Source: Gemmataceae bacterium
GTDB lineage: Bacteria; Planctomycetota; Planctomycetia; Gemmatales; Gemmataceae
DNA: 29,087 bases
Direction of reading: 5' to 3'
NCBI GenBank assembly: GCA_050248575.1
Contig: JBFWSD010000001.1
Span: forward strand, 1 to 29,087
Below are positions 1 to 4,043 of this stretch, piece by piece. The notes below the pieces were generated by a model. The model made no database searches, was not told the origin of the DNA, and saw nothing but the letters and a program-made list of their open reading frames with translations. A program made the position numbers and the translations under genes. The number at the start of each line of letters is the position of its first letter. Within the stretch, counting starts at the first letter, position 1.

Positions 1-3
1 CAC

Positions 4-208
4 GGACAGACAAGCCTGACACGTACTTTTCCCCGTCCCGGCGCAGGATTAAAGGAAATTAGCCCGCTGCGCAATGAACGGGAGGTGTCGAATGTTGCTG
101 TCAACCATGGTTGACAGATCATTCGACCCCTCCGGTCAAGCGCAGCGGGCCAATTTCCCATAATGTTGCGCCGGGCCGGGGAAAAGTACGTGTCAGGTTT
201 GTCTGTTC
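4..208. repeat. Long imperfect inverted repeat (~100-bp arms) centred on a perfect 20-bp palindrome
   Basis: Paired by hand: positions 4-72 pair with 208-140 (61 of 69 Watson-Crick, 3 G-T, 5 mismatches). The inner arms 75-94 and 138-120 pair with small bulges. The core CTGTCAACCATGGTTGACAG (98-117) is self-complementary. Confidence 0.95.
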
Positions 209-290
209 TTGCGGCACACCGTGGTGAGGATAATTTTCCCAAAAATGGTGTGAGATTCCGCCCGCATCGGTTCAGTAGTATCAGAGAGCC

Positions 291-842
291 ATGCACGAGC
301 GCGAGCTGATACTGCGGGCCCGAAGCGGGGACCGGGAGGCGTTCGGTGAACTGGTTCGCCAGCACCAGGCCCGGCTGCGCAGCTTCCTTGCCTGCACCAT
401 CGACAACGCCCACGACGTGTACGATCTCGCCCAGGACGCCTTCCTCGACGCCTTCCGCAACCTGGACTCGTTCGATGTGGACAAGGAGTTCTACCCGTGG
501 CTGCGCGGCATTGCCCGCAATCGCATGCTGAACTTCTTTCGCACCCGCAAACGTCGGCGCAGTGAGCCGCAAGCACTGGTAGACGAGGCGCTGGCCGAAG
601 TGGCTGCCCGGTGCGAGACCGAGCCGGGCGGCGACCGCCTTGAAGCCCTGGCAAGTTGCCTGGAGGGACTCGAGGAGAGTCAGCGCAGCCTCATCAGCCT
701 TCGCTACGGCGAGGGGGTGGCGGTCAAGGAACTGGCGAGCCGCTTCGAGCGCAACGCGACGGCGGTCTCGATGCAACTGCTCAGGCTGCGGGCTGCCCTC
801 ATGGAATGTGTGGATCGAAAACTGCGAGTGGCCGGATCATGA
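291..842 (+). CDS. ECF-type RNA polymerase sigma factor (planctomycete/verrucomicrobial style)
   Basis: 183 aa. Sigma2 motifs (AFGELVRQHQARLRSFL, DVYDLAQDAFLDAFR, FYPWLRGIARN) and a sigma4 HTH (LISLRYGEGVAVKELA...AVSMQLLRLRAAL). Confidence 0.9.
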   Translation: MHERELILRARSGDREAFGELVRQHQARLRSFLACTIDNAHDVYDLAQDAFLDAFRNLDSFDVDKEFYPWLRGIARNRMLNFFRTRKRRRSEPQALVDEALAEVAARCETEPGGDRLEALASCLEGLEESQRSLISLRYGEGVAVKELASRFERNATAVSMQLLRLRAALMECVDRKLRVAGS

Positions 843-2632
843 CCGAACAGGAACGAAGCCGCTGGCTCGATGCTTACCGCGACGGCGACCTGCGCCCCGA
901 CGAAGCGCGGCAGCTCGCCGACTTGCTCCGACAAGGCGGTCCCGAAGCCGAGGCTTTCCTGGCCGACTTGCAAGCGGCCGGCCTGATCGCACAGGCCCTG
1001 GCAAATACCGATGCCGAGGCTTTTGCCCGCGGTTTTGCGGAACGGCTGCAAGCGGAAACGAGCAGCGAACGTTTCGTGGTCGACTTCCAGGAACGTGCCG
1101 CCCTGCCGCCGCGCGGCCGCCGCTTGCGTGCCCGGCTGGGCTGGGCGGCCGGGCTGGCCGCTTCGGTCGTGCTGGCCGCGGTGCTTGTCTTCTCGCTGTC
1201 GGAACGCCCGGTCCAGGCGCACGGCACGGCCCGCATCGAAGAGGTCGAAGGCGAGGTCTTCCTGCTCCTGCAGAACCTGAAGGTGGCTGCCCACAACGGG
1301 CAAGAAATGCTCTCCGGGCAAGGCATCCAGGTGGCCGGCGAACGAGGCCGCGCCGTGGTGGTCTTCCCCGACGAGAGCCGTCTCGAGGTCGGTGCGGGCA
1401 CGGCCTACGCCGAGTACAACGGCGCACCGGCGCGGAAGGTCATCCTCGATGACGAGAGCTTCGTGATCGCGGACGTCGAACAGCCCATGCTGCTGGTGAC
1501 GCCCCATGCCGAAGTGAGCGCGAAGCAGACTCGCGTCAGCCTGGCCAACGGCGTCGACGGGACGCATGTGGAAGTCCGCGCCGGCGCGGGCGTCGAGCTC
1601 AAGCGATTGAGCGACGGCAAGCTGGTCGATCTGCGCCGCGGATTCTCGGCGGTCGCGTCCCCCTTGCCCGCCTTGCTAGCGCCGCGGCCCCTGGCCCCGC
1701 GCTACCAGGCGCCGCGGGCCACCTTGCGGGGCCACACCAAGTATGTGACCTGTGTCGCCTTTTCGCCGGACGGCAAGACCGTCGCTTCCGGAGCGTTCGA
1801 CAACAACATCTGCCTGTGGGATGTCGCCAGCGGCAAGTTGAAGGCCACCCTCGAAGGGCACACGGCCCCGGTTCGCTCCGTCTGCTTCCATCCTGGCAGC
1901 AACCTGCTGGCCTCGGGCTCTGACGATCGCACGGTGAGGCTGTGGAACCTGGCCGCCAGCAAGACCGAGCAGTTGATCGATGATTCGCAGGATGGCCCCA
2001 ACGCCTGGGCGCCGGTGACCTGCCTGGCCTTTACTCGCGACGGGCGGTTCCTGGTCACCGGCGGGCTGGACAAGACCGTGCGGATTCGCGAGCTGGCCGG
2101 GGACCGCGAACGCATCATCTTCAAGGGGCGCAAGGGAACGGGCCGCATCGGCCGCATCTGGTCGATGGCCCTCTCCCCCGACGAGACGGTGATCGCCGCG
2201 GGCTGCGAGAGCGAGCCGATCAAGGTCTTCGACCTGGTCACGAATCAGGCCCGGCCCTTCCTGCAACATGCCCGCCGCGTGCTGGGGCTGGCCTACTCGG
2301 CCGACGGCAGCCTGATCGCCTCCGCGGGGGACGATCAAACCGTGAAGCTGTGGGACGCGGCCACCGGCAAAGAACTGGCCACCCTGTTCGGCCACCACGG
2401 CAAAGTGGAAGGGCTGGCCTTTGCCCCCACGGGCAGCCTGCTTGCCAGCGCCGACACCGAAGGGATCCTCAAACTGTGGGACGCCAAGACGCGCGAAGAG
2501 ATCGCCGCCTTCGCGGGCCACCACCGCAACATCAACGCCATCGCTTTCTCGCCCGACGGCAAGACCATCGTCTCCGTCGGCGACGACCAGACCGTGAGAT
2601 TGTGGGATGTGCCTGCGACCAGTGGCCCGTGA
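839..2632 (+). CDS. Membrane-anchored anti-sigma factor with FecR-like domain and C-terminal 7-repeat WD40 propeller
   Basis: ATG at 839 overlaps the sigma stop (ATGA). N-terminal anti-sigma-like helix (WLDAYRDGDL), one TM (WAAGLAASVVLAAVLVFSLS), a FecR-like segment (ARIEEVEGEV...VVFPDESRLEVGAGT) and seven GH...WD-type repeats. 597 aa. Confidence 0.8.
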   Translation: MTEQERSRWLDAYRDGDLRPDEARQLADLLRQGGPEAEAFLADLQAAGLIAQALANTDAEAFARGFAERLQAETSSERFVVDFQERAALPPRGRRLRARLGWAAGLAASVVLAAVLVFSLSERPVQAHGTARIEEVEGEVFLLLQNLKVAAHNGQEMLSGQGIQVAGERGRAVVVFPDESRLEVGAGTAYAEYNGAPARKVILDDESFVIADVEQPMLLVTPHAEVSAKQTRVSLANGVDGTHVEVRAGAGVELKRLSDGKLVDLRRGFSAVASPLPALLAPRPLAPRYQAPRATLRGHTKYVTCVAFSPDGKTVASGAFDNNICLWDVASGKLKATLEGHTAPVRSVCFHPGSNLLASGSDDRTVRLWNLAASKTEQLIDDSQDGPNAWAPVTCLAFTRDGRFLVTGGLDKTVRIRELAGDRERIIFKGRKGTGRIGRIWSMALSPDETVIAAGCESEPIKVFDLVTNQARPFLQHARRVLGLAYSADGSLIASAGDDQTVKLWDAATGKELATLFGHHGKVEGLAFAPTGSLLASADTEGILKLWDAKTREEIAAFAGHHRNINAIAFSPDGKTIVSVGDDQTVRLWDVPATSGP

Positions 2633-2759: not shown

Positions 2760-4043
2760 ATGTTGACGATCGCATCGGGCAAGACGTACCGGCATTGCGA
2801 CGGGATCTCGCGTCGCGGCTTCCTGCGCGTGGGCGCGCTGGGGCTCGGCGGGCTGACGCTGGCGGACGTGTTCCGGCTGCGGGCAGCCGCCAACCAGCCG
2901 GCGCGTCCGAACAAGTCGGTCATCATCATCTATCTGAATGGCGGCGCCAGCCAGTCGGACATGTTCGACGTGAAACCGGCCGCCCCGGCCGAGTTCCGCG
3001 GCGAGTTCAAGGCGATCGATACCAGTGTGCCCGGCATCAAGGTCAGCGAGCATCTGCCCATGCAGGCCAGGATCGCGCATCGCTACGCGATCCTCAACGG
3101 CATGCAGACGATCACCTCCGGGCACAGCCTGTACGAGGCGTCGTGCGGCTTTGCGGGCGGCGTGATGCCGAAGCGGCCCGCGATCACGTCGGTGGTAAGC
3201 CGCTTCTGCAAGGCGGCCGAAGGGCTGCCCGCTTCGGTGAGCATGTCGTTCGATGCCGGCCCGGCCTACCTCGGGCCAGCCCACGCGGCCTTCACGCCCA
3301 ATGGCGGCCTCATGAACGACCTGCGTGCCTCGAAGGGCATCCCCGACGACCAGGTCGACCTGCTCAAGGGGCTCGACCGCCTGCGGGCCGATGTCGACGC
3401 CAGCCGCGAGCTCCGCGCCACCGACACCTTCACCGACAAGGCGCTCGAGATGCTCACCTCGACCAAGATCCGCGACGCCTTCGATCTCAACAAGGAGTCG
3501 GACAAGGTCAAGGAGAAGTACGGCAAGCACCAGTATGGCGGCGTGACGTTGCTGCAAGCCTTGCGGCTGGCCGAAGCGGGCGTCTCGTGCATCACCGCCT
3601 ACGGCCCGGGCAACAACCTGTGGGACACGCACAAGGACAACTTCAAGACGCTCAAGGAAAAGATCCTGCCCCACTACGACCAGTCGATCCATGCGTTGAT
3701 CAGCGACCTGTACGACCGCGGCCTCGACAAGGACGTGCTGGTGGCCGTGTACGGCGAGTTCGGGCGGACGCCGCGCGTGAACAAGAACGCGGGCCGCGAT
3801 CATTACCCGCAATCCGGCTTCGTGCAGCTGGCCGGCGGCGGACTGAAGATGGGGCAGCTGATCGGCAACACGGGCAGCCGCGGCGACTTCGATATCAGCC
3901 GCTCGAAGCCTTACACGATCCAGAACCTGTTCGCCACCTTCTACCAGTTGCTGGGCGTGGACGCGGAGATCAAGGTGCCCGACAACTTCGGCCGGCCCCA
4001 GTACATCCTGGAACAGCGTGAAAAGGTGGAAGAACTGTTCTGA
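2760..4043 (+). CDS. DUF1501 domain protein with twin-arginine leader
   Basis: GAGGT RBS before ATG 2760. CDGISRRGFLRVGALG leader, IYLNGGASQSDMFD, WDTH, GEFGRTPRVN and GRDHYP motifs typical of DUF1501. 427 aa. Confidence 0.88.
   Translation: MLTIASGKTYRHCDGISRRGFLRVGALGLGGLTLADVFRLRAAANQPARPNKSVIIIYLNGGASQSDMFDVKPAAPAEFRGEFKAIDTSVPGIKVSEHLPMQARIAHRYAILNGMQTITSGHSLYEASCGFAGGVMPKRPAITSVVSRFCKAAEGLPASVSMSFDAGPAYLGPAHAAFTPNGGLMNDLRASKGIPDDQVDLLKGLDRLRADVDASRELRATDTFTDKALEMLTSTKIRDAFDLNKESDKVKEKYGKHQYGGVTLLQALRLAEAGVSCITAYGPGNNLWDTHKDNFKTLKEKILPHYDQSIHALISDLYDRGLDKDVLVAVYGEFGRTPRVNKNAGRDHYPQSGFVQLAGGGLKMGQLIGNTGSRGDFDISRSKPYTIQNLFATFYQLLGVDAEIKVPDNFGRPQYILEQREKVEELF

Follow-up and report, generated by a model that had tools for sequence, protein, structure and literature searches.

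The window analysed here, a stretch of 29,087 nucleotides (C1:1-29087), starts at the first base of contig C1 in a MAG of 1327 contigs, 7.65 Mb and 80% completeness, a genome whose gene content, with DUF1501 and DUF1549/1553 genes and many ECF sigmas, is in keeping with a planctomycete. Its ECF sigma gene, which is accompanied by an anti-sigma gene, begins with ATG at position 291 and is preceded by a fold-back at 5-207. Aligned globally (the reverse complement of 1-107 against 108-214), the two inverted copies, 5-107 and 108-207, show 91 matches, 13 mismatches and three one-base indels, the extra bases all lying in the left arm; a repeat search of the window gives inverted arms at 1-72 and 140-211 with 88% complementarity. 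The copies meet in a perfect 20-bp palindrome whose center lies between 107 and 108 and which carries TTGACA on both strands (111-116 on the plus strand, and as TGTCAA at 99-104), while the right arm ends 83 nt before the sigma start. This geometry bears out the description given in a sequence-only reading of the locus: arms of ~100 nt around a palindrome without a loop, three single-base bulges confined to the left arm, TTGACA back to back in the core, and an end about 80 nt ahead of the sigma gene. The elements referred to below are the following; T2 denotes one type of a dispersed repeat, and 'B part' its 3' portion.

1..4, no strand assigned: four terminal bases CACG, the reverse complement of the CGTG found after GTCTGTC in most young copies of the family
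5..107, minus strand: left arm, T2 3' 'B part' (TGGTTGACAG...GTCTGTC), 90.6% identical to the young T2 consensus
5..72, minus strand: family 3' core, left-arm copy, GCGCAGCGGGC..TTTCC..TAAT..TGCGCCGGG..AAAGTACGTGTCAGG.TTGTCTGTC
98-117, no strand assigned: perfect 20-bp palindrome CTGTCAACCATGGTTGACAG, product of the head-to-head join
108..207, plus strand: right arm, 3' 'B part' of a second T2 unit with terminus GTCTGTT, 91.2% identical to the consensus
140..207, plus strand: family 3' core, right-arm copy, conserved as in the left arm

The fold-back as a candidate regulatory element

A hairpin in this position is a tempting candidate for a selected element serving the ECF cassette, whether as a dsRNA or RNase III-cleaved leader, a cruciform, a REPIN-like mobile doublet or a divergent promoter pair. 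Folded as RNA, the stretch gives a hairpin of very high predicted stability (MFE -161.1 kcal/mol, against -70.4 +/- 4.4 for shuffled sequences; z = -20.8), it lies directly upstream of the sigma gene, and its center offers TTGACA hexamers on both strands. A function of any of these kinds is nevertheless very improbable. The fold-back occurs a single time in the genome, and having no second copy it has nothing that could show covariation; the mismatches between its arms do not favor pairing, eight of the 13 pairing on neither strand, three forming G-U on the plus strand and two on the minus strand. Rfam, searched with window positions 1-1000, returns mir-3047 as its sole match, at 30.4 bits against a threshold of 53; this match of an animal miRNA hairpin, at 80-136, is spurious and covers the tip of the palindrome. 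The TTGACA hexamers come from the variable linker that T2 units carry and do not represent a conserved promoter. No sigma-70 promoter (-35 plus -10, at 16-18 nt spacing) and no terminator is found on either strand of 1-400, in a scan built on the sigma-70 consensus only, with planctomycete or ECF promoters outside its scope. Nor are family copies associated with ECF sigma genes elsewhere in the genome, as only two of the 68 genes that lie downstream of, and co-oriented with, such copies are ECF sigma paralogues.

By these sequence comparisons, a structured RNA, a sigma-70 promoter pair and a link to the ECF cassette appear without support, and the long dsRNA leader and inverted promoter duplication of the sequence-only reading fall away with them. 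Its proposal of a cruciform or recombination site divides: the junction survives as a recombination product, the cruciform as a selected element is very improbable. The fold-back itself is probably a neutral scar, with nothing selected for.

The T1/T2 repeat family

The arms of the fold-back are repeated throughout the genome. A whole-genome search with window positions 1-290 gives 111 matches; blastn with the right arm gives 159, which form a nested set with a common end base (...GTACGTGTCAGGTTTGTCTG); and 215 copies are detected in the assembly with an HMM built on the 72-nt core. The copy-number search that had been proposed for the element thus places its arm in a dispersed family and leaves the 205-nt fold-back unique, the repeated item being the ~100-nt arm, which is the tail of longer units. 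Homology among copies extends upstream of the arm-like part, and the unit layout can be read from divergent copies. An HMM of the unit has 260 matches on 175 contigs, amounting to 0.77% of the assembly; 165 of these are full-length (196-395 nt) and comprise 78 T1, 78 T2 and nine that are of neither type.

Units are roughly 200-400 nt long, start with CTTGC(A/G)CA and have a sharp 3' end at TGTCTGTC. They consist, in this order, of a 5' domain of ~115 nt, bounded by a short inverted repeat of 9-12 bp (CTTGCACAC...GTGTGCAAG in T1, TTTGCGCAA...GTGCGCAAAC in T2), a linker variable in both length and sequence, and a shared 3' core that ends in TGTCTGTC. The T2 linker consists of a ~26-nt motif in two degenerate tandem copies (CGCATCTGGTTGTGACACCGAGCGAC / ATTGGTTGACAGATCATTCGAC), as seen for example at C486:2330-2400 and at 108-135 of the window; the breakpoint of the inversion proposed below falls where these two copies adjoin. 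Copies of a young subfamily, whose T2 units measure ~265 nt, are roughly 80-90% identical to each other and often occur as a T2+T1 tandem of about 700 nt.

Both window arms match the young T2 consensus from exactly TGGTTGACAG onward; the closest matches of the left arm lie on C501, C936 and C49 (91-92%), those of the right arm on C145 and C500 (94-95%). The window fold-back is two T2 tail pieces joined head to head and not a stand-alone RNA or promoter element. The MITE-like element or transposon-end relic of the sequence-only reading is upheld to the extent that the arms, as 3' pieces of repeats, are a relic of repeat ends; a stand-alone MITE it is not, since its 205-nt unit occurs once.

Conserved secondary structure is scarce in the family. 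RNAalifold, applied to 64 T1 and 52 T2 5' domains, retains just an invariant long-range stem of 5-7 bp; this terminal stem shows matched changes between T1 and T2 but is invariant within each type, and amounts to a 'short inverted repeat' and nothing further. Within the 3' core, mutual information is negligible, and for no pair of columns is pairing more than 0.13 above expectation; compensatory changes around ACGTGTC were a first impression that disappeared after counting. A composite element on C566 has no Rfam match at E<=1.

The family is almost entirely intergenic and confined to this lineage. Intergenic positions hold 211 of the 215 core copies in a genome that is 86% coding according to a codon-usage gene caller (p about 1e-175). 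Repeat blocks lie at a median of 54 nt from stop codons, with 42% closer than 40 nt, and at a median of 163 nt from start codons, with 6% closer than 40 nt; lying near stops and away from starts is the pattern expected of tolerated insertions. The neighboring genes are diverse. The core motif ACGTGTC-N5-TGTCWGTC occurs 149 times in this genome, its reversed-pattern control not once, and it is found in two of 200 genomes of the same order, once in each, which is chance level. By blastn the family has no match in 30 relatives; of two core patterns run over 185,579 species genomes, one has no match and the other a single chance match; the core pattern has one chance match in public metagenome contigs; and within this genome the unit motifs are, outside units, no commoner than base composition predicts. 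A literature search for such a family in Planctomycetes returned nothing specific. T1/T2 is an uncatalogued, lineage-specific intergenic repeat family, and by its distribution it looks like selfish, non-autonomous mobile DNA.

Between co-directional genes, old units are oriented antisense in 40 cases and sense in 13 (p = 2.7e-4), whereas young units, with eight antisense and 16 sense, show no such bias. The 3:1 antisense bias of the old copies suggests that sense copies were purged, and hints in this way at some strand-specific activity of the unit. GC skew, as a test of replication-linked orientation, is confounded by coding-strand composition.

The family has been rearranged repeatedly. Mosaic or inverted junctions, in which family fragments meet in opposite orientation, lie inside contigs at C19:6925-7172, C14:6500-6560 and C231:1-310; in one mosaic, an inverted 67-nt core abuts a 5'-truncated T1 unit.

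A reciprocal junction and the proposed inversion

A genome-wide scan for close inverted repeats finds several long imperfect palindromes inside contigs, most of which belong to other repeat families. These are about 90-320 nt long, have arm identities of 70-90% and 5-34 loci each, lie mostly inside contigs and are unrelated to T1/T2. One palindrome on contig C685, however, belongs to T2.

C685:2868-3191, no strand assigned: A^A' palindrome, arms 2868-3027 and 3032-3191, 84% complementary, with 4 nt between them
C34:2734-2968, C263:6337-6607, C413:29-299 and C349:1-249: one other palindrome family
C1242:862-1073, C219:7212-7434, C512:4006-4240, C205:1509-1635 and C76:3427-3563: further palindromes

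The C685 palindrome consists of two T2 5' parts ('A parts') joined tail to tail, and lies in the interior of its 4.6-kb contig between unique flanks, its neighbors being an ActP-type permease gene and, across the palindrome, a DUF1549/1553 gene. Its arms end in GAGCGACAT and GAGCGACGT, which is the exact start point of the window arms. Where an intact T2 reads GAGCGACAT^TGGTTGACAG, C685 reads GAGCGACAT^ACGTCGCTC and the window reads CTGTCAACCA^TGGTTGACAG; the window breakpoint, between 107 and 108, corresponds to GAGCGACAT^TGGTTGACAG of the intact unit. A^A' and B'^B thus share one break point, down to the phosphodiester, and neither has lost or gained a base; C685 carries the second junction, with complementary halves and the same break position, that a reciprocal inversion pair calls for.

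The fold-back can accordingly be read as the join of the 3' pieces, ~100 nt each, of two T2 copies, and most likely as the scar of an inversion; we put the probability of this reading at roughly 0.6. Two directly oriented T2 copies would each have been broken at ..GAGCGACAT^TGGTTGACAG.. and their ends rejoined in the wrong pairing, so that the intervening DNA was inverted. Such an exchange with reversed polarity would give the product L-A1^A2'-(inverted segment)-B1'^B2-R and would leave two half-element palindromes, B'^B at the start of the window and A^A' at C685:2868-3191. That both junctions stem from one event, and that this event was an inversion, is what we infer from their reciprocity. 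Separate events at a site that is fragile or targeted could also produce such reciprocity, since the breakpoint sits where the conserved A part gives way to the variable linker with its two ~26-nt tandem repeats; the sequence that follows GAGCGAC differs among T2 variants.

The divergence of the arms is compatible with two parental copies. The A-part arms of C685 are 78.9% identical and the B-part arms of the window 84.5%, both within the range for random pairs of the family (for random B parts the median is 90.6% and the 5th percentile 71.7%), and each arm of the two junctions has closer relatives elsewhere, those of the window arms at 92-95%. Those intact copies (on C1137, C501 and C936) that come closest to the right arm of C685 also come closest to the left window arm; this mate signal (rho 0.36, p 0.027) appears in one of four tests and fails correction for four, so that it offers a weak hint that these two arms may once have formed one unit. 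A synteny comparison was aimed at the presumed ancestral order, with ActP next to the sigma cassette; in the relatives, which are too distant, similarity to the anti-sigma gene is limited to WD40 repeats, none of which occurs near ActP.

A duplication in place competes with the inversion for the same observations. Here a single T2 would have broken at CAT^TGG, or replication would have switched template there, and its 3' part would have been copied back, after which the arms diverged to about 85%; for C685 the same process would have started from the 5' part or in a different copy. A hairpin or fold-back event leaves point symmetry at a single phosphodiester, which is what both junctions show, and with both arms about 91% identical to the consensus, the product 0.906 x 0.912 comes close to the observed 84.5%, so that divergence from one consensus-like ancestor is numerically possible; given the star-like history of the family, two arms that started out identical and drifted apart would resemble arms taken from two copies. 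We consider this course of events unlikely. It must coincide in date with the burst of the family, and it passes through a perfect spacerless palindrome of ~200 bp, of a kind that is poorly tolerated in bacteria (SbcCD). Furthermore, a circular chromosome does not stay viable after a single break capped on both sides, but does after two copies exchange ends, and the weak mate signal ties arms across the two junctions.

Both junctions are known from the assembly alone, and the window junction sits at the very end of a contig in a fragmented MAG, so that an assembly or library artefact, in which the contig end was continued with the wrong repeat copy, in inverted orientation, and the fold-back is absent from the cell, has to be weighed. 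The end of C1 is explained by the repeat: bases 1-35 of the window have exact copies at no fewer than seven other loci, which means that the assembly broke inside a repeat, and 22 of the 260 unit matches in the family touch contig ends. The contig ends at the fold-back because the conserved repeat core blocks assembly. The sequence-only reading had allowed that the element might extend past the window edge; the left arm, however, attains the sharp 3' boundary of the family (GACAGAC at 5-11), with only the four bases CACG beyond it, and the fold-back is thus complete.

Exact sharing of sequence among many loci speaks for an artefact, as does the junction 24-mer, which has no match in the public metagenome contigs that were scanned. 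Even so, an artefact is unlikely. A walk through a de Bruijn graph can change strand only at a palindromic (k-1)-mer that the reads already contain, and the intact T2 sequence GACATTGGTTGAC is non-palindromic; the exact reciprocal of the junction is found inside a different contig, flanked by unique genes; and among all contig ends, the window junction is the only one of its kind that involves the family. The differences between the arms, at 13 positions and in three indels, show in addition that the fold-back is not the read-through of one duplex, as the sequence-only reading had argued from their divergence. A hairpin or replicated telomere, which needs a perfect inverted repeat, was rejected on account of the same differences.

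Quite unlikely is the reading that CAT^TGG in T2, where the conserved 5' part meets the 3' module, is a site of enzymatic cutting and rejoining, that T1/T2 represents a new class of mobile or recombining element with asymmetric ends, and that the 3' core ACGTGTC-N5-TGTCWGTC is the recognition site of a protein or an outward-reading promoter. A loss-free exchange at one phosphodiester in two copies would then be no accident.

For the locus, reading the fold-back as a scar in a repeat removes a tempting regulatory RNA or promoter candidate from in front of the ECF sigma cassette, and accounts for the end of the contig. For the genome, the analysis brings to light a lineage-confined family of about 260 pieces, which makes up 0.77% of the assembly, adds to the fragmentation of the MAG and would have caused one or more rearrangements of the chromosome. 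An uncatalogued repeat family is a result of an ordinary kind; it comes with one unexplained mechanistic detail: half-element palindromes formed without loss from direct repeats lie beyond ordinary homologous recombination, and if they prove true in a finished genome, they would be a clean natural case of end-joining or site-specific inversion in a planctomycete.

Relation to known repeat systems

T1/T2 shares several traits with MITEs such as the Correia elements (CREE) of Neisseria: both are short, non-coding, intergenic and of high copy number, lie near stop codons and away from starts, and form subfamilies of differing age. Unlike MITEs, T units have no terminal inverted repeats that span the unit, the 5' CTTGCACAC standing against the 3' TGTCTGTC and the ends CTTGC(A/G)CA... 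and ...TGTCTGTC not being complementary; the flanks of 78 T1 and 78 T2 units, compared by eye, show no recurring direct repeat that would mark a target-site duplication; and the fold-back is a one-off, not a family unit. An autonomous parent, in the form of a gene bracketed by a 5' domain and a 3' core, was not found, the only split pair of these enclosing a 460-nt gap with no gene inside; as the assembly is 80% complete, this is not proof of absence.

IS200/IS605-derived elements (PATEs) and omega-RNA scaffolds share with T1/T2 a sole trait, the sharp 3' boundary followed by variable DNA; they were rejected as models, as the genome has no match to TnpB (PF07282), which is found in control genomes, and the units have no fold supported by covariation. 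The genome encodes four Y1_Tnp-like ORFs. One, an IS200/RAYT-like ORF at 2014-2478 within C251:1929-2585, lies between inverted arrays of a 22-29-nt repeat (GTTAGCCCGACGCGCC...), a classic RAYT-plus-REP layout with a CGTC-type repeat that is different from T1/T2. Another, at C191:1-285 and cut by the contig end, lies ~100 nt downstream of a co-oriented T2 at 386-671; this adjacency may be a coincidence or a lead to the mobilizing enzyme.

The REP/BIME/REPIN system with its RAYT is, like T1/T2, extragenic, often situated directly after gene ends and sometimes arranged in inverted doublets. REPs, according to PMC3733652, are palindromes of 20-40 nt headed by GTAG or CGTC; the units of T1/T2 exceed this length about tenfold and are not palindromic. 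REPs and REPINs were rejected for the family, since neither its core nor its 5' domain has a conserved hairpin and the C251 Y1 gene is flanked by a different repeat.

Inversions between other repeats, such as IS copies or rRNA operons, likewise have two repeat copies at their ends and hybrid junctions. When homologous recombination causes an inversion, it acts on inverted repeats and restores them whole; here, by contrast, the junctions are the half-element palindromes A^A' and B'^B, which means that direct repeats were joined with reversed polarity at one phosphodiester, by an illegitimate or site-specific exchange.

The closest parallel is the BOX element of pneumococci (boxA-boxB-boxC), a modular interspersed intergenic repeat with no known transposase. 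Like T1/T2, BOX is present in more than 100 copies, is strictly intergenic, combines its modules in varied combinations and numbers, and has neither an encoded protein nor an identified mobilizing enzyme; the corresponding modules of T1/T2 are the T1 or T2 5' domain, the variable linker and the shared 3' core, fragments of which form mosaics. T1/T2 differs from BOX in having no sequence similarity to it, longer units (about 200-400 nt), no conserved hairpin across the unit and a sharp, highly conserved 3' end, and in being found in only one genome among 200 of the order searched. By this analogy, T1/T2 would work most like modular repeats of the BOX kind, with traits of lifestyle that it has in common with MITEs and REPs.
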